Assembly: GCA_028700625.1 (NCBI GenBank) | Contig: JAQVSI010000001.1 | Span: 7,570-71,569, forward strand | From: Candidatus Shapirobacteria bacterium | GTDB lineage: Bacteria > Patescibacteriota > Microgenomatia > UBA12405 | Length of the DNA: 64,000 nt | Direction of reading: 5' to 3' | Part shown: positions 3,484-47,662 of the stretch, piece by piece | Numbering within the stretch: the first letter of the stretch is position 1 | How the letters are laid out: every line of letters starts with the position of its first letter | Notes under the pieces: generated by a model | What the model was told of the DNA's origin: nothing | The model's database searches: none | What the model saw: the letters and a program-made list of their open reading frames with translations, nothing else | Made by a program: the position numbers and the translations under genes

Positions 3484-3546
3484 ATATATATCATACCCTA
3501 AATATTCATCTCTTGGCTATAATTAATTATTAGAAATTAAAGAAAG

Positions 3547-3587
3547 TCGCCCTGTCAAGGGAGATGCCCGAAGGGCAGAGGGTTTTA
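3547..3587. repeat. Double-hairpin palindromic element, copy 1 (intergenic, upstream of ZIP gene): gtcgCCCTGTCAAGGGAGatgCCCGaagGGCagaGGGTTTT
   Basis: Sequence family recurring about 10 times in the window (see findings). Confidence 0.75.
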
Positions 3588-3596
3588 ATTAAATTC

Positions 3597-4340
3597 ATGC
3601 AATCTTTATATTTATCTCTTCTAGCAGTTTTAATTGTCAGTTTAGTTTCCCTTTCTGGCATTGCTTTATTTTTTTTAAATAAAAAAACTAGTCAAAAAAT
3701 AAATCTTCTTCTTGTTAGTTTTGCCATTGGTGCTCTTTTAGGGGACACTTTTATTCATCTTTTGCCCGAAGCTTTTCAATCACTAAATTCCTTAACTGTT
3801 TCTTTTCTAACTATCGTCGGTTTATTACTTTTTTTTGTTTTGGAAAAAATTCTTCGTTGGCATCATTGTCATGAAATTAATTGTAATGAAAGTAAACATC
3901 TTATTGTTTTAAATACTGTCGGAGACACCATTCATAATCTAATTGATGGTATGCTCATTGCGGCCAGTTTTGCCGTCAATTTTAAATTGGGAATCGTTAC
4001 CAGCATTGCCGTTCTTCTTCATGAAATTCCCCAAGAAATAGGCGATTTTGCTATTTTAATTCATGGTGGATTATCAGCCAAAAAAGCTGTTTTATATAAT
4101 TTATTTACTGCCACTTCAGCTTTTTTAGGTGTCTTTTTATTTTTCTTTTTGGGCTCTAAAATTTCCTCTTTATCTCTATATTTACTTCCAATCACTGCCG
4201 GTGCTTTCATTTATTTGTCAGCCAGCGATCTAATTCCCGAGCTTCATCGCCACGATCAAAAACTTTCCCATTCTCTTTTGCAACTAATCTTTATAATTCT
4301 CGGAGTCGCTCTCATGTCCCTTTTGGCTTTTTTAGAATAA
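3597..4340 (+). CDS. ZIP family metal (Zn/Fe) transporter
   Basis: LLHEIPQEIGDFAIL signature of ZIP/ZupT; multiple TM helices; His-rich HHCHE loop. Start placed at ATG 3597 because the upstream Met lies inside the repeat element. Confidence 0.7.
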   Translation: MQSLYLSLLAVLIVSLVSLSGIALFFLNKKTSQKINLLLVSFAIGALLGDTFIHLLPEAFQSLNSLTVSFLTIVGLLLFFVLEKILRWHHCHEINCNESKHLIVLNTVGDTIHNLIDGMLIAASFAVNFKLGIVTSIAVLLHEIPQEIGDFAILIHGGLSAKKAVLYNLFTATSAFLGVFLFFFLGSKISSLSLYLLPITAGAFIYLSASDLIPELHRHDQKLSHSLLQLIFIILGVALMSLLAFLE

Positions 4341-7753: not shown

Positions 7754-8779
7754 TTATAACCCCAGTCTCGGGTTTCGATCTAATTTTTCTTTATCTTTCA
7801 CAAATTCTTTTCTCAATGCTTTGTAATAAGCCGCAATTCCAATCATAGCTGCATTATCAGTATTAAATTGTTTTTTAACTGGCATAAAAATTGGAGTTTT
7901 AGTTTCTTTTGCTAATTTTCTTAATCTTTTTCTAAGTTCTAAATTTGCCAAAACTCCACCACTGACTAATAATGTTTTTGGCTTATAAAATTCAATCGCT
8001 TTTCTAAATTTTATTAAAAGACTATCAAACACTGCATCTTGGAAAGTTGCCGATAAGTTAGCTAAATTTTGTCCAATTTTTTCTTTTGGCCAATCTTTAA
8101 TTTGATAGTAAAAAGAAGTTTTTAATCCGGAAAACGAATAATCAAAATTCTTTTGATTTGATAATGGACGAGGCAGTTTTAAATAATTTTTATCACCTTT
8201 TTCAGCTAATCTTTCTAAAATTGGTCCACCTGGATATCCAAGCCCCATCATTTTTGCTGCTTTGTCCAAAGCCTCTCCCGCCGCATCATCCAAAGTCTCT
8301 CCAATTACTTTATATTTTCCAATTTTTTCAACTAAAACTAATTTTGTATGACCTCCAGAAACAGTCATCGCTAAAGCCGGAAATTCAATTTTTCTGTCTG
8401 GCTTTCCTTCTTTATTTTTAATTAAATTAACCAAAATATGGCCTTCCACATGGTTTACCCCGATTAATTTTTTATTATATTTAATTGCCATTTCCTTAGC
8501 TTTATTTACCCCAATTCCCAAAGCAATCGCCAATCCCGGCCCCAAAGTCACTGCAATCACATCAATATCTTCCATTTTTAAATGAGCCCTTTTCAAAGAA
8601 GTTTTTATTACTGGTTCAATTCTTTCATTATGTGCTCTCTTTGCAATATCAGGAACCACTCCACCCCATTTGGCATGTAAATCAGTTTGAGATGAAATCA
8701 CATTTGAAAGTAGTTGGTCGTTTTTCAAAACAGCCGCACAAGTATCGTCACAACTAGTTTCTATTGCTAATATTTTCAT
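7754..8779 (-). CDS. tsaD: tRNA N6-adenosine threonylcarbamoyltransferase TsaD (Kae1/Gcp family)
   Basis: MKILAIETSCDDT start, HxxGH metal site (VNHVEGH), 341 aa. Confidence 0.85.
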   Translation of the reverse strand: MKILAIETSCDDTCAAVLKNDQLLSNVISSQTDLHAKWGGVVPDIAKRAHNERIEPVIKTSLKRAHLKMEDIDVIAVTLGPGLAIALGIGVNKAKEMAIKYNKKLIGVNHVEGHILVNLIKNKEGKPDRKIEFPALAMTVSGGHTKLVLVEKIGKYKVIGETLDDAAGEALDKAAKMMGLGYPGGPILERLAEKGDKNYLKLPRPLSNQKNFDYSFSGLKTSFYYQIKDWPKEKIGQNLANLSATFQDAVFDSLLIKFRKAIEFYKPKTLLVSGGVLANLELRKRLRKLAKETKTPIFMPVKKQFNTDNAAMIGIAAYYKALRKEFVKDKEKLDRNPRLGL

Positions 8780-8799
8780 TATTAATGTATTATAAATGT

Positions 8800-9489
8800 A
8801 TGGAATCGAAAAATACTAAATATCTCGTATTAACCATAGTCTTGCTGATTTTATCAGTCTTTGGAATTTTTTTGATATTCAAGATTAATAATTCTCCAGT
8901 TTCTACTCAAAATAAACCTGAAACCCAAGATCTAATATCTAAAATTTCAATTACCCCAACTTCTAAACCTATTGTCACTATAACTCCTATTGCCACAATT
9001 ACTGGCAAGATTGCTTCTCCTTCACCAACCAAAAAACCAACTATTACCAAAACTCCAACCGCGACTCCAACTGCCAAAATAACTCCAACCACAATTATTA
9101 CCCCCAGTCCAATTCCAACAGAATCAGTTTCTGGTCAAATAAATTATAAAAACCAAGAAGACGGTTTTTCTATAGAATATTCATCTACAAGAAAGTTCTA
9201 TCAAGACAAAGAAAGTAGCGGTAATCGCTATACTTTCTATAGCTTGTCAGGTAATTTTGCAGTTCACGTTGCCCTCAGTGGCTCTTGGGCTTGGACTAAT
9301 TCAGACAGAAATTTTAGTTCTAGTTTTATAGTTTCTGGTCAAAACACTTTTCGCTATGAAATCGCCACTCAAACCATTGTTGATCTTCAATCAAGCGATA
9401 AAAATTACACCATCCAATGTGTTCACAATGGCAAAGAATCGCTCAAAACCGAATGCGAAGCCTTCATTAAATCCTTCCAATTATTATAA
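8800..9489 (+). CDS. Hypothetical N-terminally anchored secreted protein with Pro/Thr-rich linker
   Basis: TM helix then PTxTPT repeats then Cys-containing globular domain; start moved to the second Met to avoid overlap with tsaD. Confidence 0.4.
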   Translation: MESKNTKYLVLTIVLLILSVFGIFLIFKINNSPVSTQNKPETQDLISKISITPTSKPIVTITPIATITGKIASPSPTKKPTITKTPTATPTAKITPTTIITPSPIPTESVSGQINYKNQEDGFSIEYSSTRKFYQDKESSGNRYTFYSLSGNFAVHVALSGSWAWTNSDRNFSSSFIVSGQNTFRYEIATQTIVDLQSSDKNYTIQCVHNGKESLKTECEAFIKSFQLL

Positions 9490-9536: not shown

Positions 9537-10616
9537 TTAATACCTTATTTCTCTCGTATTTTCATCCAAATATTTAAACTGAATTGTCACCATTTTATTT
9601 TCTTTTTTTAGTTTCTCAAAATTTTTCTCACCCATATTTTCCGGCCACTCAATACAAGCAATATTGTTTTTGAATAATTCAAAAAATTTTATTTCTTCCA
9701 ATTCATAATCGGCACTAATTCTATACAAATCAAAATGCAAAAACTTTTTTTGTCCCCCTTTCGTCAAAGGGGGATGTCCGAAGGACAGGGGGATTTGATA
9801 TTCATTATAAATCACAAAAGTCGGACTCGTGATTTTTTCTTTTACTCCCAATAAATGTCCTATTTTACGGCTAAAAACCGTCTTACCACATCCCAAATCC
9901 CCAGTTAGGGCAAAAATAATTGGTTTATCAATATATTTTTTTAATAAAAATTCAGCAATTTTTCCTGTCTCTTTTTCCGATTTGGAAATCAATGTTTGAC
10001 TATTAGTAGTAATTAAATCACCTCGTCTTAATATTTTTAATTCCGCTTCAGTGGCATCAATTACTGTTGATGGTTTATTTCTTGGCAATTTTCCCGCATC
10101 CACAATCAAATCAATCATCTTCTTTTTCTTATTAGAAAGTGGTCTTAAAAAACTGGCGATTGAATAATTTGGAGTTCGTCCCGATAAATTTGCTGAAGTT
10201 GCTGTTATTGGTTTTTTAAATATTTTTACTAAATCGTGAATATATTTATTGTCTGGAATTCTAATTCCCAAAGTTCCATTTTCTGCTTCTATTCCGAGAG
10301 AGACCTTATGTTTTCCATTACTGACAATTGTAAAAGGGCCGGGTAATAAATTTGTATAAATATTTTGTCCATTTTCATTAAGTTCAACGTATTCCAAGGC
10401 CATTTTTTTATTAAAAACTGCGACCGAAATTGCCTTACCTGTCCATCTATTTTTAAAAGACAATAGTTTTTCTGTCGCTTTTTGGTTAGTTGGATCTACT
10501 GCCAAAATATAAACCGTATCACTTGGAAACACTACCAATCCACCATTTTTTAAAATCCTTGCGGTTTCTGATATAACTTTTTGATAATTATTTTCCTTAA
10601 TCTCCACTATTTTCAT
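9537..10616 (-). CDS. tsaC-tsaE: Fused L-threonylcarbamoyladenylate synthase (TsaC/Sua5/YrdC domain) - TsaE (YjeE P-loop ATPase) bifunctional t6A protein
   Basis: N-terminal half: VFPSDTVYIL, TSANLSGRTP (YrdC signature). C-terminal half: GDLGCGKTVF P-loop, SPTFVIYNEY, HFDLYRI (TsaE signature). Contains an in-frame repeat insertion. Confidence 0.7.
   Translation of the reverse strand: MKIVEIKENNYQKVISETARILKNGGLVVFPSDTVYILAVDPTNQKATEKLLSFKNRWTGKAISVAVFNKKMALEYVELNENGQNIYTNLLPGPFTIVSNGKHKVSLGIEAENGTLGIRIPDNKYIHDLVKIFKKPITATSANLSGRTPNYSIASFLRPLSNKKKKMIDLIVDAGKLPRNKPSTVIDATEAELKILRRGDLITTNSQTLISKSEKETGKIAEFLLKKYIDKPIIFALTGDLGCGKTVFSRKIGHLLGVKEKITSPTFVIYNEYQIPLSFGHPPLTKGGQKKFLHFDLYRISADYELEEIKFFELFKNNIACIEWPENMGEKNFEKLKKENKMVTIQFKYLDENTREIRY
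9753..9796. repeat. Palindromic element, copy 2, located in frame inside the tsaE domain (encodes ..SFGHPPLTKGGQKK.. on the minus strand)
   Basis: tccCCCTTTCGTCAAAGGGGGatgtCCGaaggaCAGGGGGATTT matches the repeat family. Confidence 0.7.
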
Positions 10617-10659
10617 GACACTATTTTATCACCTAAATACAACTTCTCCCTTTTAAAAT

Positions 10660-10708
10660 CCTCCCTGTTAAGGGAGGAAAAAAAGGTTCTTTAGGGAAGG
10701 TAGGTTTT
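10660..10708. repeat. Palindromic element, degenerate copy 3 (intergenic, upstream of valS)
   Basis: CCTCCCTGTTAAGGGAGG hairpin followed by a second hairpin region and GGTTTT. Confidence 0.5.
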
Positions 10709-10733
10709 AACTGTTTTATGCTAAAATACTCGC

Positions 10734-15949: not shown

Positions 15950-15985
15950 AAAGTATATGAATTATACCAAAATTTATAAAGATTT

Positions 15986-16035
15986 CTCCCTTTCATCAAA
16001 GAGAGATGCCCCGCAACAGCGGGGAGAGGGATTTA
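15986..16035. repeat. Palindromic element, copy 4 (between tRNAs): TCTCCCTTTCATCAAAGAGAGATGCCCCGCAACAGCGGGGAGAGGGATTT
   Basis: Repeat family member. Confidence 0.65.
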
Positions 16036-16083
16036 AGACAAAAAACAAAAAAGCCGCCTAATTAAAGACAGCCCCTTTGTTTG

Positions 16084-17495: not shown

Positions 17496-17500
17496 ATAAG

Positions 17501-17545
17501 CCGTCCCTTTTCAAGGGAGGGTGCCCGCAGGGCGGGTGGGTTTTA
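17501..17545. repeat. Palindromic element, copy 5 (canonical): CCGTCCCTTTTCAAGGGAGGGTGCCCGCAGGGCGGGTGGGTTTTA, between convergent xerD and the ATPase gene, abutting the ATPase stop codon
   Basis: Repeat family member; double hairpin plus T-run is terminator-like. Confidence 0.75.
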
Positions 17546-19876
17546 CAATCTCGCCCTTTTTCCTATTTCCGCTTCCACCAATTCTCTTGGTCGGCCATAT
17601 TTCAATGATGATAATTTCTTAATCATCTCGGCTTTTTTAGGATCGCCTGCTTTAAGTCTTTCTGCTGCTGCCACTTTTAATGAAAATGGCTGTTTAGGAA
17701 CTCCATTAATCATAGTTTTCATATATATTTCTCCCGTTCCTAAATTCAATAGATCATGTTCTCCAAATTCTGGTTGAAATTGTTTAGCCAAAAATCCAGC
17801 ATCGGAAATACCAAGTCTAAAACTACTTATAGTACCAACGTTTCCAAACACAGCGTTTTTAACTTCATCGTCCATCTGAGAAATAAATTGATTAGCAACT
17901 GTTAAATTTAAGTGATATTTTCTGGCTTCAGATAAAATAACAGCAAAGTCTTGAGTAGCAAAATTTTGAAACTCATCCACGTATAGATAAAAATCTTTTC
18001 TCAATGCCTCTGGAGTATCTTGTCGGCTCATAGCGGCAATTAAAATCTTAGGAATCAACACTAATCCTAAAAATGCTGAATTTTCTTCTCCAATTGTTCC
18101 TTTAGCTAAATTAATTATCAAAATTTTTCCATCATCCATCGCTTGTCTAAAATTAAAAGAAGAAGTGCTTTGGCCAATAATATTTCTCATCATAGTGTTG
18201 GTAATAAAGCGTCCAAATTTAGACACTATATAATCCAAAACTTCTGATTTGTGGAAATCACTAGTTTGGGCAATTTGATCAGTCCAATAACGTCTCACCA
18301 TTGGATCAGTTAATTTTGGTAATAATTCTTGAACATAATTTTGATCAGTTAAACAACGGACTATTTCAATAAAAGTTGCCCCAGGCTCAATCATAACTGT
18401 TAACATTATATTTCTAATTGCGTGTTCAAATCGAGGTCCCACAATACCAGTTTTATATGGATCATAAAGTTTATACATCAAATTGATAATAGAACTTGTT
18501 ACAAAATCTTTTTGATCTTCTCGGTCACATTCCATCACATTAAAACCCATTGGTCTTTCTGTTTGAGATGGATCAAAATAGATAACATCATCAATTCTCT
18601 CTGGAGGAATTCTTTCCAAAATACTTTCATAAGTATCGTGTGGATCAATAAAACAAACTCCATGACCAGCCTTAATATCTTGAAGTGCCATGTCTGCTAA
18701 AAGCCAAGATTTACCCACACCAGTTTGTCCCACAATATAAAAATGTCGTTGCCTATCATTTGTTGTCATACAAAATTTTTTATTAACTCCGCGATACAGA
18801 TTGTCACCAACATAAAGTCCCTCTTGAGGGGAATCAGTTGGAGCCGGTGCTTTTTTGGCCTTTAACCAATAAATATTTGGAGTTTCAATCGATTTATTTG
18901 GAAAATGGAAGATGCCAGCAATTTCATCTGAAGATAAAACAGTCTTATTTTTAATCCACATTAACACAGGATATTTATAGATGAAATCAGCCATAAACAT
19001 CGATTTGACCATTATTTTTTTGCTAGTAAGCTTATTCCAGGGCGATTCAAATTGGCCAAAACATGCCTTAATATTGGAAATATTCATCTTAGCTATTTCT
19101 TTGCTTGGTGCCACTGCTAGAATTCTTATCACCACTTCAAAACTAGGTTTACTACTTTTTTGTTCAATTGCTTCCAATTGTTTAGCATCGATTTTGTAAG
19201 AAGCCTTTTCGGAATTAGATTCTGATTTTTTAGTACTACTAATAAAACCTCGACCCATTTTTGCCCACTTACCTTCAGTCGGTGATAAAACTAGTTGGAT
19301 TGAAATTGTTTCATTTTCGTTTAATTTAGACAAAGTTGAAGTTACTGCAGCTAAAGGATCAACCGAAATTTCTTTGTAGTTTTTTAAAGGATAATAGGGG
19401 ATTTTTTTTAAAGCCAACCATAAGTATTCTACTTTACCATCGTTAGTATAGATATTTGGTTCTTCAACCACCTTAACATCAGCTCCAGCATAAACACTGT
19501 AAATTTGTTTTTCGATTAAATCTTGATATTTTTCTGGAATTGAAATATAGAACTTAATATCATCATGAGTTCCAATAATTTCCAAAGATACACTTGGTTG
19601 AGAAATTAATGGTTGCAAAAATTTTAATTTTGCCGATTTATGTAGGCTGGAAATTGAATTAATTATTTGTTCACTAGCATCAATTTTTATCTCATTATCT
19701 TGTGGCACTGCTATCAATAAAGTTATCAACTTTAAAGACTTTTCTTCTCTATCTCTCCACTTCCACCACATTAAAACTGCCAAACTTAAAAATCCTAAAA
19801 GCAAGACAATTAATACTATTATTAGTAGTGACATCAAAAACGCAGTTATTTGTTCAACTATCAAACTTTGATTCAT
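17543..19876 (-). CDS. Membrane-anchored FtsK/TraG/VirD4-superfamily P-loop DNA-translocase-like ATPase (777 aa) with ~400 aa non-canonical N-terminal domain
   Basis: Single N-terminal TM; Walker A GQTGVGKS; Walker B LYVDEFQ; LTVANQFISQMDDEVKNAVFGNVGTISSFRLG matches the post-Walker-B Q..SQL..G....FR block of coupling proteins and FtsK. Confidence 0.5.
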   Translation of the reverse strand: MNQSLIVEQITAFLMSLLIIVLIVLLLGFLSLAVLMWWKWRDREEKSLKLITLLIAVPQDNEIKIDASEQIINSISSLHKSAKLKFLQPLISQPSVSLEIIGTHDDIKFYISIPEKYQDLIEKQIYSVYAGADVKVVEEPNIYTNDGKVEYLWLALKKIPYYPLKNYKEISVDPLAAVTSTLSKLNENETISIQLVLSPTEGKWAKMGRGFISSTKKSESNSEKASYKIDAKQLEAIEQKSSKPSFEVVIRILAVAPSKEIAKMNISNIKACFGQFESPWNKLTSKKIMVKSMFMADFIYKYPVLMWIKNKTVLSSDEIAGIFHFPNKSIETPNIYWLKAKKAPAPTDSPQEGLYVGDNLYRGVNKKFCMTTNDRQRHFYIVGQTGVGKSWLLADMALQDIKAGHGVCFIDPHDTYESILERIPPERIDDVIYFDPSQTERPMGFNVMECDREDQKDFVTSSIINLMYKLYDPYKTGIVGPRFEHAIRNIMLTVMIEPGATFIEIVRCLTDQNYVQELLPKLTDPMVRRYWTDQIAQTSDFHKSEVLDYIVSKFGRFITNTMMRNIIGQSTSSFNFRQAMDDGKILIINLAKGTIGEENSAFLGLVLIPKILIAAMSRQDTPEALRKDFYLYVDEFQNFATQDFAVILSEARKYHLNLTVANQFISQMDDEVKNAVFGNVGTISSFRLGISDAGFLAKQFQPEFGEHDLLNLGTGEIYMKTMINGVPKQPFSLKVAAAERLKAGDPKKAEMIKKLSSLKYGRPRELVEAEIGKRARL

Positions 19877-22555: not shown

Positions 22556-22558
22556 ATT

Positions 22559-22605
22559 AGCCCTCTTTGTCAAGGGAGGGTGCCCGCAGAGTGGGTGGGT
22601 TTAAG
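22559..22605. repeat. Palindromic element, copy 6 (canonical), immediately upstream of dnaG, overlapping its annotated N-terminus
   Basis: GCCCTCTTTGTCAAGGGAGGGTGCCCGCAGAGTGGGTGGGTTTAAGG. Confidence 0.75.
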
Positions 22606-24412
22606 GTATAATAAGCCAGTGGACAATCAAGTAGACGAAATTAAACAAAAACTCAACATTGTCGATGTAATTAATCGCTATGTTCCTCTAAAAAAGCGAG
22701 GTCGTCATCATGTGGCTTGTTGCCCTTTTCATGGCGAAAAAACTCCCTCATTTACAGTCTCAGAAGAAATGCAGATTTTTAAATGTTTTGGTTGTGGTAA
22801 AGCTGGTGATATTTTTACTTTTTTAGAAGAATATGAAAAAATTGATTTTAGAGAAGCGTTGGAAGAATTAGCCAAATTAGCCGGGGTTACTTTAGTTAAA
22901 AGTAGTTTTATTGATCACCAAGAATCCAAGAAGAAATTATTAATCGAAATTAATACTCAAGTTGCCAAATTTTACAACTACATTCTTTTGTCCCATCCCA
23001 TGGGCAAAGAAGCATTAGAATATACCACCAAAAGGGGAATAACCCTAGAAACCATTAAAACTTTTAACATCGGTTTTTCTCCCGACGATTCAAAATATTT
23101 AAGCAATTTCATTTTAAAAAAAGGCTACAAAATTGATGATTTAATTTCTACAGGTACTTTTGGTAAAAGTAATTATGGACCTGGTCTTTATGATCGTTTT
23201 CAAGGTCGTCTAGTTTTTCCTCTTCCAGATTATCGTGGTCATATTGTTGCTTTTGCTGGTCGTATTTTGCCATCAACCAAAAATCCCAACATGGCTAAAT
23301 ACATTAACTCTCCAGAAACTGAAATCTATCACAAAAGCAGTATGCTTTTCGGTTTAAATTTGGCCAAAGAAGCCATTAGAGCTGAAAATTCAGTTATTGT
23401 GGTTGAAGGTGAATTCGATATGATTTCTCCTTATCAATCTGGTTTCAAAAATATAGTTGCTCTGAAAGGCACTGCTTTTACCCAAGATCAACTTCAACTT
23501 CTCCGTCGTTACACCGACACTATTATTCTTGCTCTCGATTCCGATTTTGCTGGCAATAATGCCGCCAGAAAAAGTATCGAACTTGCCGATTCTATGGAAT
23601 TTGATATTAAAGTTTTAAATTTAGGCGATAAATATAAAGATCCAGACGAAGCCATCAAAGACGATCCAGAATTTTTTAAATCACAACTCCTCAAAACCAC
23701 TGATGTTTGGGATTTCATTATTCAGTCTCAATTAAAAAGTAATGATATTAATACTGTCAAAGGCAAAAGAGAAATTTTGAATGTGACTCTTCCTTTTTTA
23801 GTTAAAATAAAAAGTCCTGTCACTAAATCAGATTATTTCAAAAAATTGGCCAATGAAATTAATTCCAACATTGAATCTGTCTATGAAGAATCCCAAAAAT
23901 TTTTACTTTCACCCGTCCGAAGCTTTAACGTAGGAGGGCCAAAACCAGTTGAGCCAGTCGAAGAATCTGAAAGCAAAACCGAAAAATTAGAAGAACTTTT
24001 ATTATCTTTAATTATTGGTGCCAAAAATCCTTCCAAATTGGCCCTAAAACTAAAAAAATATCTCGACCAGCTTACTGTTCCTCGTTTTAAAACTATCGCT
24101 AATTATCTTCTGGAAAAAGAAAATTTTTCTTTAAAAGAAATAATGGATTCTCTTCCCGCTGAAATCCAACCTCTTTTCCAAGAAATTTATTTTGAATCAG
24201 AAAAAAACCAGATCGATTCCAAAGATCGTCTATCAGAAATCAAAAAAGCTACTTCCAAAATATCTTCAATTTTATTGAAAAAGAGGTTAAATCAGCTTAG
24301 TAATCAAATAAGTAAATTAGAATCAGAAGAAGATGAAGAGCTTCTAAAACAAGTCGAAGTGGAATACAAACAAGTCCTAGAAAAACTCCATCAACTCCAA
24401 ATTAATAAATAA
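22580..24412 (+). CDS. dnaG: DNA primase DnaG
   Basis: CHC2 zinc finger (CPFHGEKTPSF..FKCFGCGKAGD), TOPRIM region (VVEGEFDMIS). True start probably slightly downstream of the repeat (near VDNQVDEIK). Confidence 0.8.
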   Translation: MPAEWVGLRYNKPVDNQVDEIKQKLNIVDVINRYVPLKKRGRHHVACCPFHGEKTPSFTVSEEMQIFKCFGCGKAGDIFTFLEEYEKIDFREALEELAKLAGVTLVKSSFIDHQESKKKLLIEINTQVAKFYNYILLSHPMGKEALEYTTKRGITLETIKTFNIGFSPDDSKYLSNFILKKGYKIDDLISTGTFGKSNYGPGLYDRFQGRLVFPLPDYRGHIVAFAGRILPSTKNPNMAKYINSPETEIYHKSSMLFGLNLAKEAIRAENSVIVVEGEFDMISPYQSGFKNIVALKGTAFTQDQLQLLRRYTDTIILALDSDFAGNNAARKSIELADSMEFDIKVLNLGDKYKDPDEAIKDDPEFFKSQLLKTTDVWDFIIQSQLKSNDINTVKGKREILNVTLPFLVKIKSPVTKSDYFKKLANEINSNIESVYEESQKFLLSPVRSFNVGGPKPVEPVEESESKTEKLEELLLSLIIGAKNPSKLALKLKKYLDQLTVPRFKTIANYLLEKENFSLKEIMDSLPAEIQPLFQEIYFESEKNQIDSKDRLSEIKKATSKISSILLKKRLNQLSNQISKLESEEDEELLKQVEVEYKQVLEKLHQLQINK

Positions 24413-24413
24413 T

Positions 24414-24453
24414 TCCCATCCTTTTGTCAAAGGAGGGGTTAGGGGTAGATTTT
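24414..24453. repeat. Palindromic element, variant copy 7, in dnaG-rpoD spacer
   Basis: CCCATCCTTTTGTCAAAGGAGGGGTTAGGGGTAGATTTTA. Confidence 0.55.
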
Positions 24454-24481
24454 AAAAGAATTTTCCTATACAATATACCGC

Positions 24482-39528: not shown

Positions 39529-40722
39529 ATGATTTCACAACCGTTAGCTTCATTACTTCGTCCTAAAAATTTAGAAGATTTTGTCGGTCAAACTCATCTG
39601 GTTGGTCCTCAAAAACCGCTTCGTTTGGCAATCGAAAACCACCAAGTTTTTTCCATGATTTTTTGGGGTCCTCCTGGAGTTGGTAAAACCACATTAGCTC
39701 GAATTTTAGCCAGTGAAGCCGAGGCTACTATTCACGAGTTATCGGCAGTTTCTGCCAGTAAAGATGATATTAAAAAAATTATTGCCGCTTATCGTCCTAT
39801 GGAAAAGAATATTCTTTTTCTAGATGAAATTCATCGTTTTAATAAAGCTCAACAAGATTTTCTACTTCCCTCAGTTGAATCGGGAAAATTAATTTTAATC
39901 GGTGCCACCACTGAAAATCCCAGCTTTGAGGTCATTTCTCCACTTCTTTCTCGTTGTCGAGTTTTTGTTTTAAAAGAATTATCCGACGATGAAATGAGTC
40001 AAATCATCGATAAGGCAGTTCAAAAATTAGCTCCCCTGTCAAGGGGGGGTGGTCGTAAGACCGGAGGGGTTTTAATCAAAAAAGACGCCAAAGATTGGAT
40101 TATTCAAATGGCCAATGGTGATGCTCGTCAATGTATTACCATCATGGATAACGCTTTTACTCTTTATGGCGATTTAAAACTAGAAAGTTTAAAACAAGCC
40201 CTTCAAAATTCTTTTCTCCGTTTCGACAAAAAAGGTGAGGAGCATTACAATACCATTTCCGCTTTTATTAAATCCATGCGCGCCAGTAATGTCGACGCCT
40301 CTCTTTATTATTTAGCCCGAATGATTACTGCTGGTGAAGATCCAAAATTTATTGCCCGTCGTATGGTTGTTTTTGCTAGTGAAGATATTGGCATTGCCAA
40401 TTCTTCAGCCCTGATGTTGGCCAATAATGTTTTCGATGCAGTTATGAAAATTGGCTATCCAGAATGTCGTGAAAATTTAGCCCATGGCGTGGTTTATTTA
40501 GCAAAATCACCTAAAGATAGGTCAGCTTATGAAGCCTATTTATCTGCTCTTAAAGACGTTGAGATTCATGGTAATTTACCAATACCGCTTAATCTCCGCA
40601 ACCCCGAAACCAAATTAATGGAAGACATTGGCTATGGTAAAGGTTACGAAAAATATACCAAAGAGTCTCTTTTACCAAATAAAATTAAAGATAAAAAATA
40701 TTTTATTGAAAAGAAAAAATAA
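39529..40722 (+). CDS. rarA: Replication-associated recombination protein A (RarA/MgsA AAA+ ATPase), carrying an in-frame repeat insertion
   Basis: FWGPPGVGKTTLARILA Walker A, LFLDEIHRFNKAQQD, NGDARQ sensor region. Confidence 0.8.
   Translation: MISQPLASLLRPKNLEDFVGQTHLVGPQKPLRLAIENHQVFSMIFWGPPGVGKTTLARILASEAEATIHELSAVSASKDDIKKIIAAYRPMEKNILFLDEIHRFNKAQQDFLLPSVESGKLILIGATTENPSFEVISPLLSRCRVFVLKELSDDEMSQIIDKAVQKLAPLSRGGGRKTGGVLIKKDAKDWIIQMANGDARQCITIMDNAFTLYGDLKLESLKQALQNSFLRFDKKGEEHYNTISAFIKSMRASNVDASLYYLARMITAGEDPKFIARRMVVFASEDIGIANSSALMLANNVFDAVMKIGYPECRENLAHGVVYLAKSPKDRSAYEAYLSALKDVEIHGNLPIPLNLRNPETKLMEDIGYGKGYEKYTKESLLPNKIKDKKYFIEKKK
40029..40074. repeat. Palindromic element, copy 8, in frame within rarA (encodes ..APLSRGGGRKTGGVLI..)
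   Basis: AGCTCCCCTGTCAAGGGGGGGTGGTCGTAAGACCGGAGGGGTTTTA. Confidence 0.7.
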
Positions 40723-40724
40723 AA

Positions 40725-40973
40725 ATGTATTTTGTCTACATTATTCAATGTAATGATCAAACTCTTTACACTGGTATTACTACCGATCTAGACAGAAGGA
40801 TTAAAGAACATAATAATTCAAAACTCGGTGCTAAATATACTAAAATTAGACGACCAGTAAAATTAGTTTATTCAAAAGAATTTATTGACAGGTCTGAAGC
40901 TTCAAAAGAAGAATCAAAAATTAAAAAATTATCACGCCAAGAAAAATTAGATTTATTAAAAAATTTTAAATAA
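40725..40973 (+). CDS. GIY-YIG nuclease family small protein (UPF0213/YhbQ-like)
   Basis: FVYIIQCNDQTLYTGITTDLDRRIKEH matches the GIY-YIG motif. Confidence 0.7.
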   Translation: MYFVYIIQCNDQTLYTGITTDLDRRIKEHNNSKLGAKYTKIRRPVKLVYSKEFIDRSEASKEESKIKKLSRQEKLDLLKNFK

Positions 40974-41021: not shown

Positions 41022-43139
41022 ATGTTTTCTTTACTAATCACTTTTCTATTATTTTTTATAGTTACAGTTCAACCTGTTAACGCTCAATTATTAGAAGAAT
41101 CCACTTCCAGCGCTCAAATTATCCCCACTGAAATTCCAATAACCGAAATCACACCAATCCCAACCGATATCGCTTCAACCTTAACAGAAAATATTTTAAT
41201 CCCCACCGAAACACCAACATTAACCCCAACTTTAATTCCAACTCCAACTCCAACTCCAACTCCAACTCCAAAAGTTATTGAAAGTGAATCCATAAAATTT
41301 CCCCAAATCACCACCGACAAGGCTGATTATTCTCCAACCGATATTGCTATTATTTCTGGTAATAATTTTTTATCAAATACTCAATACATTTTAAATATCA
41401 CTTCAGACAATTTAAATGTTAATTATCAAATTAATTCCGACGAATCCGGTTCTTTTATTTATAATTATCAACTCGATGGTATTTATCGACCAAATTATAA
41501 AGTTGAAGCCAGAGATTTAAACAACAATATTATTTCCTTCATCACTTTTACCGACAAAAGAAGTGTCCTTTCGGCCACTGTTAATGGACAAAATTCAATC
41601 AATGTTTTTTCCAGAGATTCAATTACTGTCGGAGTAAGTGTTAACACAGATTGGTGGTGGTTTTGGAACAATGATTGGAGATCAACTTCCTGGAGGTTTG
41701 GTAATTCTGGAGAGTGGAATTGTGTTGACACTCCAAACCATCTTAAATCAGGCGATTATTCAGAATTTTTTCAAATAAATGCTCCCATAAATCCCAAAAA
41801 ATATCAATTACAAATCAGAATTCATGGTTTAGAAAATTGTGGAATTTTATTTAAAAGTGATATTTTTACTCTAAAAGATGCTATAACAGTTTCTCTTCCC
41901 GACACCACTCCTCCAATTATTACCATCGATTTATACAACACAAATTTAACCAATCAAGATATTATTGTCTCAGCTTCTACCAATGAAGGCACTTTAAATT
42001 TTACTTCTCACACTTTTGAATCAAATGATTCTTTTACTTTTATTGCCACTGATAGTGTTGGTAACATTGCTACTGAAATTATAACTATCAATAATATCGA
42101 TAAAACCCCACCAACTCTTTTAAACAAAACCGAATTTGGAAACAGTTGGTACAACACCGATCAACTTTCAGTTTTTAATTTTACCGATGAAAATGGCGTT
42201 ATTTCTGGTAATAATCCAACTTGCCAAATTTTCAGCGAAGGTTCTTTTCAAACTTGTTCTGTTGGTTTAAATGTTTGTGATACCGCTGGTAATTGCAATA
42301 CTGATTTAATTTTTTCCAATAGTGCCAACATCGACAAAACTAAACCAATTTTGGGTTTTTCCATAACTCCATCTTCTTCTAATGCCGATAATAATTGGTA
42401 TAGAACTCAGCCAGAAATAAATTTAACTAATATTGAAAATAACCCTTTTATTTTCCAATACAAATGGGATTCTGAAAATAGTTGGACTAATTATAATTTT
42501 TGTTTAAGACCTTCTTTTGAAGGTTCACATACTCTTTATTTCCAATCTCAAGATTTGGCTGGTAATCAGACAAGTTCTCTTATTGAAATTAAATGGGACC
42601 AAACTGAACCATCTATTGCCCCTCAAAACATAAGTGCCAATCCAAACAACACTAGTAATAGTGTTTCTACTATCAAATGGGACCAAGCCATCGACAATAT
42701 TGGCATTGATAAATATGAAATTAAATGGACTTTAAATAACCCTAATAATCCATTTTCTTATTCTAAAACAGTTGGGTTTGATGTTAGAGAAACTGAAATT
42801 GATAAATTAATTGAAGGTCGTTGGACTGTTCAGGTTTTTGCTATCGATCCAAGTGGTTTAAAAAAAGACAATGCTATCGATTTATTTATTATTAAAAATA
42901 GCGAAATTATTTTTAATGATGTTCCTGTAAAAACAGTCTTGGCTCAAAAAAAATTATTAACAGAAATTAAAGATACTGATAATCAAATTATTCCGATTCT
43001 AACTTCATTTCCAACTGTTTTAGGCACTTCAACCACTAAAAAGAAATTTAATTTAAAATGGTTTCTTTTAGTTACAATTATGGTTCTTTTATATATCAGC
43101 ATCCGCAAGTACAACAATAAATCAAAAAAAATAATATAG
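41022..43139 (+). CDS. Large cell-surface protein (705 aa): signal peptide, Pro/Thr-rich linker, beta-rich repeats, C-terminal TM plus basic tail
   Basis: Architecture read from translation; (PT)n linker; C-terminal WFLLVTIMVLLYISIRKYNNKSKKII anchor. Confidence 0.45.
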   Translation: MFSLLITFLLFFIVTVQPVNAQLLEESTSSAQIIPTEIPITEITPIPTDIASTLTENILIPTETPTLTPTLIPTPTPTPTPTPKVIESESIKFPQITTDKADYSPTDIAIISGNNFLSNTQYILNITSDNLNVNYQINSDESGSFIYNYQLDGIYRPNYKVEARDLNNNIISFITFTDKRSVLSATVNGQNSINVFSRDSITVGVSVNTDWWWFWNNDWRSTSWRFGNSGEWNCVDTPNHLKSGDYSEFFQINAPINPKKYQLQIRIHGLENCGILFKSDIFTLKDAITVSLPDTTPPIITIDLYNTNLTNQDIIVSASTNEGTLNFTSHTFESNDSFTFIATDSVGNIATEIITINNIDKTPPTLLNKTEFGNSWYNTDQLSVFNFTDENGVISGNNPTCQIFSEGSFQTCSVGLNVCDTAGNCNTDLIFSNSANIDKTKPILGFSITPSSSNADNNWYRTQPEINLTNIENNPFIFQYKWDSENSWTNYNFCLRPSFEGSHTLYFQSQDLAGNQTSSLIEIKWDQTEPSIAPQNISANPNNTSNSVSTIKWDQAIDNIGIDKYEIKWTLNNPNNPFSYSKTVGFDVRETEIDKLIEGRWTVQVFAIDPSGLKKDNAIDLFIIKNSEIIFNDVPVKTVLAQKKLLTEIKDTDNQIIPILTSFPTVLGTSTTKKKFNLKWFLLVTIMVLLYISIRKYNNKSKKII
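41236..41266 (+). repeat. Hexanucleotide (CCAACT)n microsatellite encoding the PTPTPT linker
   Basis: About 5 perfect tandem hexamers. Confidence 0.6.
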
Positions 43140-43192
43140 CCCTCCTTGTCAAGGGAGGGTGGTCCCGCTGCTGCGGGACCGGGTGGGTTTTA
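43139..43192. repeat. Palindromic element, long copy 9, between convergent genes, ending at the helicase stop codon
   Basis: GCCCTCCTTGTCAAGGGAGGGTGGTCCCGCTGCTGCGGGACCGGGTGGGTTTTA. Confidence 0.75.
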
Positions 43193-44512
43193 ATATTTGC
43201 TTTCCACAAACGTCAACGCAAAACCAGTTTTATCACCTCGACCAGTTCGTCCAATTCGGTGAACATAATCTTCGTAATTGTTTGGTTTATCAAAATTAAT
43301 TACATGAGTAATATCGGCCACATCTAAGCCTCTGGCTGCCACATCAGTAGCAATTAAAATATTGATTTCGTTTTCTTTAAATTTTCTTAAAGTTGTTTGT
43401 CTTTGGTATTGAGCTTTGTCACCATGAAGTGATCCAACCCTAAATCCTTTTTGGCCTAAACCAACAGATATTTTTTCAACCATCGATTTAGTTGCTCCAA
43501 AAACCAACACTTTTTTAAATTCTTCTTGTGCTAATAATCTATGCAAAGTAATTTCTTTTTCTTCTCGTCTTACTCTAACAATGTTTTGTTCCACATTTTT
43601 AGAACTTTCTTGAGTTTTAACCGAAATTTTAGCTGGATTAGTTAAAAATGAATCAATTAAGTGTTCAATTTTTTTATTAACTGTCGCGGAAAAGAATAAT
43701 GTTTGATGAGGGGAGGGAATTTGCTTTACAATTTCTTTAATATCTTCCACAAAACCCATATCCAACATTCGATCAACTTCGTCTAAAACCACAGTATTAA
43801 GTCGAGAAAAATTAATTATTCTTCGTTTGGCTAAATCTTTAATTCTTCCTGGAGTTCCAACAATAATATGTGGATCTCTTTTAATATCCAAAATTTGTTC
43901 TCTAATATAAGCTCCGCCAATTGCTAAAGCCACATAAACTCTAAGTCCAAAAGTGAAAGATCTAATTTCTTGTTTAATTTGTTGGGCCAACTCTCTAGTT
44001 GGTGCCAAAACAATTATTCTTTTGCTTGAGTCCAATAAAATTTGATTAATTAAAGGCAATGCAAAAGCGGCAGTTTTTCCAGTTCCAGTATTGGCAACTC
44101 CTAAAACATCTCGGCCTTCTAAAATACGAGGAATAATTTCATCTTGAATAGAAGTTGGTTTTAAATAACCTTTATTTTTAATGTTGTCCATTAAAACCGG
44201 ACTAAAATCAAAATCGGAAAATTTATTTTTAACAACAACATCTTCGATTTTTATAACTGGTTCAGCTCTTCTAATAAACATTGAGGTGTCAATTCGGCTT
44301 TCAAAACTTCGGTTTTTTCGACCACCAAACCTACTGCCACTATTTCCATTTCTTGGGCTAAAATTACTTCGACCTCCAAATCGGATTTGATTACCATTGG
44401 ATTTTTGTCGACTTCTTGCACCAAAGTTATTGGTGAATTTATTCTGATACATAATATTTGTTGACCCAAACCTGTTTTTCGGCCTTAACCTAGAAACTTG
44501 CGGTGCCCACAA
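43190..44512 (-). CDS. DEAD-box ATP-dependent RNA helicase with Gly/Arg-rich N-terminal extension
   Basis: GTGKTAAF (motif I), DEVD, SAT, HRIGRTGR. Confidence 0.85.
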   Translation of the reverse strand: MWAPQVSRLRPKNRFGSTNIMYQNKFTNNFGARSRQKSNGNQIRFGGRSNFSPRNGNSGSRFGGRKNRSFESRIDTSMFIRRAEPVIKIEDVVVKNKFSDFDFSPVLMDNIKNKGYLKPTSIQDEIIPRILEGRDVLGVANTGTGKTAAFALPLINQILLDSSKRIIVLAPTRELAQQIKQEIRSFTFGLRVYVALAIGGAYIREQILDIKRDPHIIVGTPGRIKDLAKRRIINFSRLNTVVLDEVDRMLDMGFVEDIKEIVKQIPSPHQTLFFSATVNKKIEHLIDSFLTNPAKISVKTQESSKNVEQNIVRVRREEKEITLHRLLAQEEFKKVLVFGATKSMVEKISVGLGQKGFRVGSLHGDKAQYQRQTTLRKFKENEINILIATDVAARGLDVADITHVINFDKPNNYEDYVHRIGRTGRGDKTGFALTFVESKY

Positions 44513-45931: not shown

Positions 45932-47662
45932 ATGACGTCAAACTTTTCCACTATAAAAATTGCTGGTCCTGCTGGTTCTGGCATTAAATCTGCCGGTCAA
46001 CTTTTTTCCAAATTTTTAATTGATCATAGTTTTAATTTGGTCGATTATAGTGAATATCCATCTCTGGTTCGTGGTGGTCACAATACTTATCAAATTACTT
46101 TTTCCGACGAAAAAGTTTTTTCCACTCATTTTAATGTGGATCTATTTTTTTCTGTCTATCCAAATCATTGGCAACAACACTTAGAAGAATTTACTAAAGA
46201 TACTTTAATTTTTTCTGATGAGGATTTCTCTAAAGTCAAAACTAAAGCTAAGTTTTTACGTCTGCCTTTAAAAGATATGGCCACTGAAGTTGGTAGTCTT
46301 TTAGTTGTTAATACACTTTGTCTAGGAGTAGCTGCTTATCTTTATGATTTAGATACTACTCTCATTAAAGATCTTATTTGTGAAACTTACGGTAAACACG
46401 GTGACTTAAACTGTAATGCTTTTAATATTGCTTATCAATATGCATTTAAAAACTTTTTTAAGTTTCAAATTAAAATAAAAAAACCAAGCAAAAAGATAAA
46501 AATGGGTTTTTATGACGGTAACGAAGCTTTTGGTTGGGGATTTATCAAGGGTGGTGGCATTTTTTATTCCGCTTATCCAATGACTCCAGCCACCGGTGCT
46601 CTCCATTTTTTGGCTGCCAAACAAACAGAATATAAATTAACAGTAATCCATCCAGAAGATGAAATTTCTTCAGCTAACATGGCTGCTGGTGCTGCTTTCA
46701 CTGGGGCTCGTAGTGCCACAGGCACTTCAGGTGGTGGTTTTGCTCTCATGAATGAAGCTATCAGTTTCTGTGGAATTACTGAAATTGGTATGGTTTATTA
46801 TTTAGTATCAAGACCAGGTCCAGCCACTGGCCTTCCAACGTGGACAAGTCAAGGAGATCTTCTTCATGCTATCTATTCTGGTCATGGTGAATTTCCCAAA
46901 GTTGTTCTTGCTCCAGGAGATCTCGATGAATCTTTTGAATTAAGCCATACTGCTCTTGATCTAGCTGCTCATCTCCAAACTCCAATAATAGTTTTAAGCG
47001 ATAAATTAATCGGTGAATCAAGTGGTAGTACTAATTATTTCCCAGAAATGGAAGTAAAAATTGATAAGGGTGAAATTCTAAATGAAATTGAAGATGAAGA
47101 TTATAAAAGATATGCTTTCACTAAAAACGGCATTTCTCCACTTTCTCTTCCAGGCACTCCAAATGGTGAATTTTTATCCAACAGCTATGAACATGACGAA
47201 TATGGTTTTGCCACAGAAGATGCTAATCTTTCAGAAAAAATGTCTAAAAAGAGAATGTTAAAAAATAAAGTTGCTTTAACTATTTGTCCAAAAGCTAATT
47301 TTTTTGGATCTAAAAAAGCCAAAAAATTAATTATTGCCTGGGGTTCTCCCAAAGGAGCTATTCTTGAAGCCTTAAAATTAATAGAAAATAAAGAAGATTT
47401 TGCTTTTTTACAATTAAAAACTCTCTGGCCAATTAATCCTGAAATTAAAACTATTATTAATGCTTTTAAAGAAATTATTGTTATAGAAAACAATGGTACT
47501 AGCCAACTAGTTACTCTTCTTAAATCTCAATTCGATTTTAATCCAACTAGAATAATCAATAAAAACAATGGCCGTCCTTTCTTTCCAGAAGAAATCATTA
47601 AATTATTAAAAAGTTATCCTGTCAAAGGAAATGCACGCAGGGCAGAGGGTTTAAAACTATGA
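45932..47662 (+). CDS. 2-oxoacid:ferredoxin oxidoreductase alpha subunit (fused gamma-alpha, KorA-like); C-terminal residues encoded by a repeat copy
   Basis: N-terminal gamma-like IKIAGPAGSGIKSAGQLF; alpha domain GNEAFGWGFIKGGGIFYSAYPMTPAT. Confidence 0.7.
   Translation: MTSNFSTIKIAGPAGSGIKSAGQLFSKFLIDHSFNLVDYSEYPSLVRGGHNTYQITFSDEKVFSTHFNVDLFFSVYPNHWQQHLEEFTKDTLIFSDEDFSKVKTKAKFLRLPLKDMATEVGSLLVVNTLCLGVAAYLYDLDTTLIKDLICETYGKHGDLNCNAFNIAYQYAFKNFFKFQIKIKKPSKKIKMGFYDGNEAFGWGFIKGGGIFYSAYPMTPATGALHFLAAKQTEYKLTVIHPEDEISSANMAAGAAFTGARSATGTSGGGFALMNEAISFCGITEIGMVYYLVSRPGPATGLPTWTSQGDLLHAIYSGHGEFPKVVLAPGDLDESFELSHTALDLAAHLQTPIIVLSDKLIGESSGSTNYFPEMEVKIDKGEILNEIEDEDYKRYAFTKNGISPLSLPGTPNGEFLSNSYEHDEYGFATEDANLSEKMSKKRMLKNKVALTICPKANFFGSKKAKKLIIAWGSPKGAILEALKLIENKEDFAFLQLKTLWPINPEIKTIINAFKEIIVIENNGTSQLVTLLKSQFDFNPTRIINKNNGRPFFPEEIIKLLKSYPVKGNARRAEGLKL
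47617..47656. repeat. Palindromic element, copy 10, forming the last ~13 codons of the oxidoreductase alpha subunit (..PVKGNARRAEGLKL*)
   Basis: TCCTGTCAAAGGAAATGCACGCAGGGCAGAGGGTTTAAAA. Confidence 0.65.

Follow-up and report, generated by a model that had tools for sequence, protein, structure and literature searches.

A two-hairpin repeat in frame within a loop of the TsaE domain in a Candidatus Shapirobacteria bacterium

Rickettsia palindromic elements (RPEs) are palindromic repeats that lie in frame in housekeeping genes and are translated at permissive positions, according to PMC10969869, which cites Ogata (2000 Science 290:347; 2002 Genome Res 12:808). Here we describe a comparable case in a 64,000-nucleotide stretch of a Candidatus Shapirobacteria bacterium (GenBank contig JAQVSI010000001.1; 31% GC), hereafter the window, where a copy of a short repeat that we call R1 sits inside a fused tsaC-tsaE gene (tsaCE). 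We consider it highly probable that this two-hairpin copy occupies a turn of the TsaE domain in frame and is translated as 12-13 extra residues in a flexible loop, and that the family owes its distribution to strand-specific spread filtered by selection.

R1 resembles RPEs in being a dispersed palindrome of a bacterium with a small genome, with copies between genes as well as in the reading frames of housekeeping genes that are not related to one another. Like RPEs, it would be translated into additional peptide segments where the fold can accommodate them. R1 is about 45 nucleotides (nt) long (12-16 residues), compared with ~100-150 nt for RPEs. It also differs in its host, a Candidate Phyla Radiation (CPR)/Patescibacteria lineage, in the re-occupation of the very same loops by several subfamilies, and in an orientation strictly tied to GC skew. 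We know of no report of GC-skew-tied orientation for RPEs. R1 is of the RPE kind in being a dispersed hairpin family with members in frame within a gene and absent from its orthologues, and is set apart by size and host. By this comparison R1 is an analogue of the RPEs and not a member, and it would act like an RPE at the protein level and like a REP/IS200-type hairpin element at the DNA level.

R1 would represent a second, independent natural case of the Rickettsia phenomenon, in which selfish palindromes are translated within housekeeping proteins, and its structural effect on a protein should be easier to test than that of an RPE, R1 being three times shorter. The usual picture of CPR/Patescibacteria genomes is one of streamlining and a scarcity of repeats. 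Our search of the full-text literature found no report of REP-, RPE- or MITE-like elements (the last being miniature inverted-repeat transposable elements) in CPR bacteria, an absence that is not proof.

An R1 copy inside the TsaE domain

The tsaC-tsaE fusion is an intact open reading frame (ORF) of 359 residues on the minus strand at 9537..10616, recognised from the ORF list and Pfam. Residues 21-199 match the TsaC/Sua5/YrdC domain (Pfam Sua5_yciO_yrdC, 143.5 bits), and residues 212-356 (9549..9983, minus strand; Pfam PF02367 and Foldseek) form the TsaE domain. PF02367 scores 100.7 bits against a cut-off of 26.6, and its match takes 145 residues to cover 126 profile positions, so that the domain is ~19 residues over length. 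The translation shows the Walker A motif GDLGCGKT together with SPTF, HFDLYR and EWPE; profile, motifs and fold agree in placing the domain among the TsaE/YjeE P-loop ATPases. The fusion is kept in all of the ~160 relatives looked at.

On the plus strand, antisense to tsaCE, an R1 copy spans 9750..9800 with its core at 9753-9796 (cmsearch, 51.3 bits; leave-one-out nhmmer), the sequence at 9751-9794 being TGTCCCCCTTTCGTCAAAGGGGGATGTCCGAAGGACAGGGGGAT. Hairpin 1, TCCCCCTTT / cgtc / AAAGGGGGA, is a perfect 9-bp stem at 9753..9774 (hairpin scan and RNA fold). It is followed by hairpin 2, TGTCC / gaa / GGACA, at 9775..9787 (fold and family-wide covariation), and by a single-stranded conserved tail, GGGGGATTT (consensus GRGGGRTTT), at 9788..9796 (column frequencies). 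The minus-strand reading of the copy is in frame and free of stops, giving ...SPTFVIYNEY-QIPLSFGHPPLTKGGQKK-FLHFDLYRI, with YQIPLSFGHPPLTK as the insert-spanning peptide. Thirteen codons, P276-G288 (PLSFGHPPLTKGG; 9753..9791, minus strand), are assigned to the insert from the translation, the gap in HI0065, the loops of relatives L085 and L094 (L-numbers denote related loci) and the structural model. Coordinates, Pfam and the stop-free reading therefore confirm what a first-pass annotation of this DNA had proposed, a palindromic element in frame inside the TsaE domain. The mRNA-sense strand of the copy folds into two adjacent hairpins at -20.4 kcal/mol (z=-3.5), a stability that none of 200 shuffled sequences equalled, and this copy and one in rarA are the only strongly folding GC-rich segments in the coding sequence of the window.

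The R1 family was defined by repeat finding, alignment, nhmmer and a covariance model built from alignment A4. Its members, ~45 nt long, consist of hairpin 1 (consensus CCCTCC-TTGTCAA-GGGAGGG), then a hairpin 2 with a variable GC stem, then the unpaired tail GRGGGRTTT. Among 223 distinct copies the tail columns are G 95%, R, G, G 85%, G 99%, R, T 98%, T 100% and T 86%, and the 5' flank shows no conservation. With filters off, cmsearch finds ten copies in the window at E <= 0.02, all on the plus strand, four of which were absent from the seed alignment of the model. The tsaE copy, itself part of the seed, scores 51.3 bits over all 51 positions of the covariance model. It is also found at E=3.2e-8 by a DNA profile (nhmmer) built without it and without its orthologue in L081, and at E=1.9e-6 by a profile made from only three intergenic window copies. 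Its membership of the R1 family is not a chance match, and the leave-one-out profiles and the full-length covariance match uphold the earlier proposal that the insertion is encoded by the minus-strand reading of a full repeat copy. An exact-stem hairpin scan was too strict, recovering only three of the ten window copies, and was replaced by nhmmer and the covariance model. A scan of the window at Rfam gathering thresholds returned four tRNAs only and no known RNA family at the tsaE element.

The segment is an insertion and not an ancestral loop, because orthologues have shorter loops. In a phmmer search of PDB sequences, Haemophilus influenzae HI0065/YjeE (1HTW) aligned with a single 12-residue gap exactly opposite PLSFGHPPLTKG, and YdiB and the other TsaE chain shown are likewise shorter there, so that these solved TsaE/YjeE proteins lack the segment. 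Loop lengths were compared over 120 protein homologues (67-100% identity) and 146 DNA loci. The loop has 18 residues in the window versus 6 in two close relatives without the element, L085 (ETGKNK) and L094 (KTKNNK), whose best tblastn segment is 82-83% identical, while deep Shapirobacteria clades have 2 residues (GR, GK, GH) or 9 (PLSNSNFKI-type). The excess in the window is 12 residues both against HI0065 and against the nearest empty relatives; the ~14 extra residues first suggested were close. Codons flanking the loop are nearly invariant at the nucleotide level, and the loop itself is hypervariable. The tsaE-loop segment is both an insertion and a full member of R1.

We find it scarcely credible that the segment represents ordinary loop-length variation or an assembly artefact rather than a repeat insertion. 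The loop is intrinsically variable, ranging from 2 to 39 residues, but profiles that do not contain the tsaE copy match it significantly over its full length, and it has the same two-hairpin anatomy and tail as the intergenic copies. An artefact is ruled out because an independent metagenome contig (L080) carries a tsaE insert of identical sequence, and because the insert of L160, a second lineage, differs from it by two synonymous changes and encodes an identical peptide; the 160 independent contigs speak against the family as a whole being an artefact of the assemblies.

In an AlphaFold2 model of tsaCE (mean pLDDT, the predicted local distance difference test score, 71), the insert lies between strands 270-274 and 291-296 in a low-confidence loop without regular structure, with pLDDT < 50 at residues 280-287. 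Foldseek aligned the C-terminal domain of the model with 1HTW, 5NP9 and chain E of 6N9A (TM-scores of 0.66, 0.69 and 0.64, respectively). The insert forms the turn of a beta-hairpin joining the SPT (switch I) strand to the HxDxYR (Walker B) strand. Since SPT starts the first strand and HxDxYR ends the second, both at the nucleotide site, the tip of the hairpin is the end farthest from the P-loop, and the geometry of the model would thus place the insert remote from it. The catalytic motifs and the reading frame are untouched and, judging from the sequence, the enzyme has most probably kept its function.

Recurrent occupation of the same loops and maintenance of the hairpins

Among relatives we sampled the regions around tsaCE, in 160 related loci, and around rarA. 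On 1.47 Mb of related DNA the covariance model gave 255 matches, 223 of them distinct. Most of the distinct copies lie inside ORFs (137, or 61%), with 63 intergenic and 23 at ORF edges. The host genes of 72 assigned in-ORF copies include tsaCE (34 copies at no fewer than four sites), tsaD, where 19 copies share two sites (one following SGGHTK, the other around residue 63), and valS, where 9 copies lie around residues 630-650. In the window, tsaD lies directly downstream of tsaCE at 7754..8779 and is empty at both of these sites.

At the tsaE loop the inserts are of several kinds. That of L005 is nearly identical to the window intergenic copy at 3540, and those of L084 and L122 to the window copies at 17497 and 22556. 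A third subfamily supplies the inserts of the window, L081 and L160. Further types read ..TLTPxPFPLTGQGEK.., ..SPNPSLTRGEQN.. and ..NPSKSPFDKGD.., and double and triple inserts reach 39 residues. Two antisense frames are in use, TTG ACA giving ..LT(R/K)G.. (..PSLTRGE..) and CTT GAC AAG giving ..LDKEG.. (..PSLDKEG..). Of the 87 antisense copies in ORFs whose hairpin-1 loop can be recognised, 59, 28 and 0 fall into the three phases, the empty phase being the one that creates TGA. Elsewhere in tsaCE the N-terminus and sites ~208, ~230, ~309 and ~317 are occupied, and 55 of 120 proteins have at least 5 extra residues at site ~230. Several R1 subfamilies recurrently occupy the same loops of essential genes across the lineage. 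The first-pass annotation had held that the gene tolerates a palindromic element as a peptide insertion; this is supported, and in view of the recurrent occupation and the several subfamilies it was an under-statement. R1 accounts for many of the length differences among orthologous TsaC-TsaE, TsaD, ValRS and RarA proteins, and bears on annotation, on alignment and on the interpretation of "CPR-specific insertions".

RarA provides a second hot spot. Most close relatives (385 residues) lack the 12 residues present in the window protein and read KL-ET-KISKDA there, and other relatives have other inserts at the same point, SPLSKGDLEGL and SPLHQGEIPRKGRG. In other relatives the tsaE loop holds in-frame AT-rich tandem heptamers instead, namely (GAAAGTY)4, (GATCGTM)4, (GTTACGA)4, (ATTACGA)4 and (AATTTCC)4, in thirteen loci (L001, L087, L117, L023, L098, L020, L074, L032, L048, L141, L132, L082 and L004). 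Such arrays are a second, microsatellite-like source of loop variation.

A neighbour-joining tree of tsaCE shows insert types interspersed, with the same type turning up in distant branches. Being short, and perhaps distorted by recombination, the tree is unfit for counting gains; the independence of insertions is argued instead from subfamily identity and reading frame. Locus L160 is a mosaic along tsaCE, with 76-93% identity, which suggests recombination. At its TsaE site ~317 it carries a 21-nt mini-hairpin, AATCCGCCACTAAGCGGATTG (NPPLSGL), that is absent from the window at 9650-9680 despite ~93% identical surroundings.

Because different frames and orientations give unrelated peptides, the conserved entity is the DNA and not the peptide. 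We accordingly think it very unlikely that the loop is a functional peptide module, selected for a protein role in the fused TsaC-TsaE such as contact with TsaD or TsaB, with its likeness to the repeat being secondary. The identical insert peptides of the window and L160, and the great frequency of loop inserts in the crown clade, would fit such a module. Yet peptides differ wholly between subfamilies and frames, some relatives carry AT-rich heptamers at the site, close relatives manage with 6 residues, substitutions keep base pairs and not residues, and the model gives a disordered loop.

The hairpins of R1 are kept by covariation. In a 121-copy alignment, which was fitted to the model and so favours structure, 84.9% of cells are paired and 11 of 13 pairs have changed on both sides; none of 500 shuffles reaches the observed covariation score, and slid controls are clearly lower. 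In helix 2, family-wide, 93% of cells are paired and all five pairs have changed on both sides. Pairing is 0.86 inside ORFs and 0.87 in intergenic copies. Between the window and L081 a C:G pair has become T:A, with P-to-L and G-to-E changes in the protein, and compensatory, protein-altering changes likewise separate L088 from L092 and L003 from L022, in the same, presumably orthologous, tsaE loop.

Nucleotide variation within resident copies is also low. Across eight genomes with one insert type, the pairwise difference is 0.055 in the element and 0.275 in the flanking 240 nt, and at third positions 0.033 and 0.433. A second group gives 0.154 versus 0.271, and 0.138 versus 0.441 at third positions. 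A third group of three loci does not fit, its insert (0.164) being more variable than its flanks (0.079). That the element is less variable than the synonymous sites around it in both larger groups disfavours an unconstrained loop; the low variation there points to selection on the hairpins, to concerted evolution, or to repeated site-specific insertion of a conserved master copy.

Strand polarity and the spread of R1

All window copies lie on the plus strand, though host and neighbouring genes lie on both strands. This strand is C-rich whatever the direction of the genes, with a GC skew at third codon positions of -0.34 for plus-strand genes and -0.27 for minus-strand genes. With the elements masked, every match (121 of 121 and 134 of 134, together 255 of 255) is oriented in accordance with the sign of the local GC skew, where skew is a proxy for replication direction and the skew of a locus is pooled over codon positions. 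The form with hairpin 1 at its 5' end and the G-rich tail at its 3' end is always on the C-rich strand; background composition cannot explain the polarity, since it is the G-rich form that is found on the C-rich strand. Where tsaCE is reversed relative to skew, in 11 loci of deeper clades (loci such as L040, L051, L055-L057, L060, L142, L146-L149 and L158), the 16 copies are flipped too, and these loci may stem from few inversion events. About 64% of the coding bases of the window lie on its C-rich plus strand; if the leading strand is G-rich, as is usual, most window genes would lie on the lagging strand. For elements of this kind we found no report, in the literature searched, of perfect coupling between orientation and GC skew or of excess in-gene nucleotide conservation. 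Skew coupling together with in-gene conservation (in two groups) could help in studying the spread or role of hairpin repeats in unculturable bacteria.

Y1 HUH enzymes recognise hairpins and carry out single-strand transposition on the lagging-strand template (PMC6006769, PMC5027513). An orientation that follows strand asymmetry, whichever way the genes run, is a reported signature of such hairpin-dependent transposition in IS200/IS605, and REP/RAYT elements have been proposed to behave like IS200/IS605 at the lagging-strand template (PMC5027513, PMC6006769, PMC3333891). R1 shares with IS200/IS605 its hairpins and, by the GC-skew proxy (255 of 255 matches), a preferred orientation with respect to the replication fork (PMC5027513, PMC6006769). 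A further possible likeness is insertion beside a particular short sequence, with no duplication of the target. On the G-rich strand the element is preceded by AAAC, which is also present at the empty sites of L085, L094, L011, L107 and L140, but flanks are too diverged to fix the junction and such a rule is only suggestive at 31% GC. As regards classical MITEs, which combine terminal inverted repeats with a target-site duplication, no duplication is visible in four comparisons of filled with empty sites, whose flanks have diverged, and the tail of R1 is no more than a loose inverted copy of the 5' arm of hairpin 1. R1 differs from IS200/IS605 in having two adjacent hairpins within 45 nt instead of separate left and right ends, and no TnpA is linked to it.

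R1 is also like REP, BIME and REPIN sequences, short GC-rich imperfect palindromes with many copies and several subfamilies (PMC3333891, PMC3733652, PMC6006769). Like REPs it combines a hairpin with a conserved single-stranded motif, and RayT-like genes are present in close relatives of the R1 host. R1 differs from REPs in that 61% of its copies (137 of 223) are intragenic, where REPs are predominantly extragenic, in its single orientation in place of inverted doublets, and in that the RayT genes of the relatives go with GTAGAGACG..CGTCTCTAC palindromes, not with R1.

In close relatives a RayT-like Y1 HUH protein is encoded at 11199-11795 of L179. It scores 28.9 bits for Pfam Y1_Tnp (cut-off 23) and 64.7 bits for NCBIfam REP_Tyr_transpos, below the equivalog cut-off of 80. 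Its HUH motif (HLH) and Y-x3-N-P motif align with those of Escherichia coli RayT (Y115/N119). Further RayT-like genes in close relatives lie at 4001-4483 of L180, 4001-4600 of L181 and 4001-4573 of L182, and there are 312 homologues of 160-304 residues, several of them named RayT or Shapirobacteria transposase at their source. In the genomes of L004 and L007 the gene has a conserved context, RNase J-rayT-aminoacyl-tRNA synthetase-ftsK. Around tsaCE itself, phmmer gave no match to E. coli RayT in the six-frame ORFs of any of the loci. With the RayT-like genes of these relatives the lineage has REP/RAYT machinery; a link to R1 is unproven.

On the account that we favour, R1 would owe its spread, now or in the past, to a process that is specific to one strand and works on single-stranded DNA folding into hairpins at the replication fork, in the style of IS200/IS605 and REP/RAYT elements. 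Purifying selection would then remove insertions save those with stop-free frames at permissive, A/T-rich loop codons. A few loops would look like hot spots because selection filters out all other insertions.

Several observations weigh against this account. A Pfam scan of all 68 window ORFs found no transposase. The RayT-like genes of relatives are preceded by, and contain in frame, a different palindrome family, GTAGAGACG-N10-CGTCTCTAC, and no R1 copies were found near these genes. R1 also lacks the GTAG/CGTC tag of REPs, having an unconserved 5' flank and the 3' tail GRGGGRTTT. The window copies are mostly 61-69% identical to one another, which bears on recent mobility, and a search of the 160 loci for recent filled and empty allele pairs found none more than 90% identical, the best flanks reaching ~88-90%. 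The strong conservation of resident copies is unexpected for inert selfish DNA. Lastly, the polarity was measured within tsaCE and rarA regions that cross no origin or terminus.

The other palindrome is a perfect 28-nt GTAGAGACG-N10-CGTCTCTAC, with a GTAG tag as in classical REPs, found at 11529-11556 of L179, at 3930-3957 and 4311-4338 of L182 and in 16 further loci; it is not in the window. In tsaCE it is translated in frame as ..VET....SLQ.. at sites ~208 and ~230.

The polarity of R1 is also a signature of polar host motifs, a property it shares, by the GC-skew proxy, with Chi and with the FtsK-orienting polar sequences (KOPS). R1 could accordingly be a host-maintained nucleic-acid signal, a set of cis-acting DNA or RNA hairpins with fixed polarity to replication that selection would keep in permissive loops, for lack of space between genes, with the peptide as a by-product; candidate kinds are a motif orienting a translocase or recombinase, a recombination or repair signal, and a primase or replisome signal. 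The perfect GC-skew concordance (255 of 255) speaks for it and is presumably a stronger polarity than any known of KOPS or Chi. Conservation of the resident copies within genes exceeds that of the synonymous sites beside them 3- to 10-fold, compensatory changes that alter the protein maintain the stems, with equal pairing inside and outside ORFs, intergenic copies are retained at orthologous positions across species, and the tail GRGGGRTTT is conserved. The spacing of the copies, however, is irregular, with gaps of 0.9-15.6 kb, and the final 16 kb of the window is empty; relatives have three rarA loci, of 21 kb each, without any copy, many orthologous sites are empty in close relatives, and no binding protein or phenotype is known. 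The conservation could moreover come from concerted evolution or from repeated insertion of a master copy. We regard a host signal as rather improbable. Equally tentative, and in our opinion doubtful, is the broader idea that R1 is a replication-polar element specific to ultra-small CPR genomes, being either a ~45-nt single-strand-mobilised class with site-specific re-insertion or a host-maintained polar signal. If this were true, R1 would have been written into permissive loops for want of intergenic space, and selection on DNA hairpins would shape protein loops.

Other R1 copies and further features of the window

The remaining nine copies in the window are all on the plus strand. An intergenic copy at 3540..3590 (cmsearch 51.3 bits; Pfam neighbours) lies between genes for a solute-binding protein and a ZIP transporter. 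A degenerate copy at 10654..10711 (cmsearch 24.9 bits) lies between the start codons of tsaCE and valS; at its orthologous position L002, L003 and L007 have copies of ~50 bits. The copy at 15982..16038 (cmsearch 25.5 bits) falls between tRNA genes identified with Rfam. The best copy, 17497..17547 (cmsearch 62.6 bits; Pfam), occupies a convergent gap, starting 2 nt past the stop codon of a xerC/D-like gene. That XerC/D-like tyrosine recombinase gene, at 16626-17495, ends just before the best copy, which may be coincidence. Copies follow at 22556..22606, between a polyprenyl synthetase gene and dnaG (cmsearch 53.4 bits; Pfam), and, weakly, at 24413..24456, between dnaG and rpoD (cmsearch 12.1 bits, E=0.02). 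The copy at 40025..40075 (cmsearch 45.3 bits) lies in frame and in sense orientation inside rarA (APLSRGGGRKTGGV). A copy with a long hairpin 2 occupies a convergent gap at 43135..43194 (cmsearch 39.3 bits, not in the seed). Finally, the copy at 47607..47657 (cmsearch 43.7 bits) makes up the last ~16 codons and the stop of a pyruvate:ferredoxin oxidoreductase-like ORF at 45932..47662, whose C-terminus appears element-derived (peptide SYPVKGNARRAEGLKL, then the stop).

The placement of these copies bears on a further possibility, that R1 serves as a transcription terminator or antisense block for genes of the C-rich strand. The tsaE copy, which lies 260 nt into the convergent tsaCE, would then stop read-through from the plus-strand ORF at 8764..9489. 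Four copies (17497, 22556, 24413 and 43135) start 1-5 nt past plus-strand stop codons, the one at 47607 overlaps the last codons and the stop, and each of these five ends in TTT(T); copies at 17522 and 43160 were flagged as terminator-like. The tsaE copy was flagged on neither strand, however, and is followed by an A-run in the mRNA sense and by only GAUUUGAU on the plus strand. The T-run of R1 has only three conserved T and begins six unpaired bases after hairpin 2. Some copies, moreover, are found in divergent promoter gaps (3540 and 10654), and others run in sense orientation within rarA and valS, genes to which a terminator would do harm. We judge a terminator role unlikely. The tsaE copy in particular was rejected as an intrinsic terminator, which has a GC-rich stem directly before a U-run. 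Two other readings of this copy were also dropped: a G-quadruplex, the copy having only two G-runs, and a promoter built on the TTGACA loop, which has no -10 box at a suitable distance.

Many intergenic R1 copies, lying just past stop codons and ending in a T-run, recall the pneumococcal SPRITE and the Correia element (PMC10969869). They differ from these in that the tsaE copy lacks the features of a terminator and that R1 is frequent in coding sequence, in both orientations. Elhai and colleagues are said to have described very small dispersed repeats of cyanobacteria in 2008 (Genome Res). These resemble R1 in forming hairpins, in being tens of nucleotides long and in lying inside conserved genes without breaking them; their sequences and phylum differ from those of R1. 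We know of no report of GC-skew polarity or recurrent loop hot spots for the cyanobacterial repeats. A phage origin of R1 was also considered. Scanning IMG/VR with a full-element pattern gave 0 hits, and a hairpin-1 pattern gave 15 contigs with weak partial matches only (<=24 bits).

Some side observations concern the annotation of the window. ATG or GTG codons inside the copies at 3540-3590 and 22556-22606 lead to spurious N-terminal extensions in the ORF calls of the ZIP transporter (3564..) and dnaG (22580..), whose true starts are probably downstream of the repeat copies. A stand-alone 82-residue ORF with a GIY-YIG nuclease domain lies directly after rarA at 40725-40973, a position kept in L177 and L178. 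Pro/Thr-rich (ACTCCA)n stretches at 9024-9118, 41201-41283 and 58643-58701 encode TP-repeat linkers in three otherwise unrelated ORFs.

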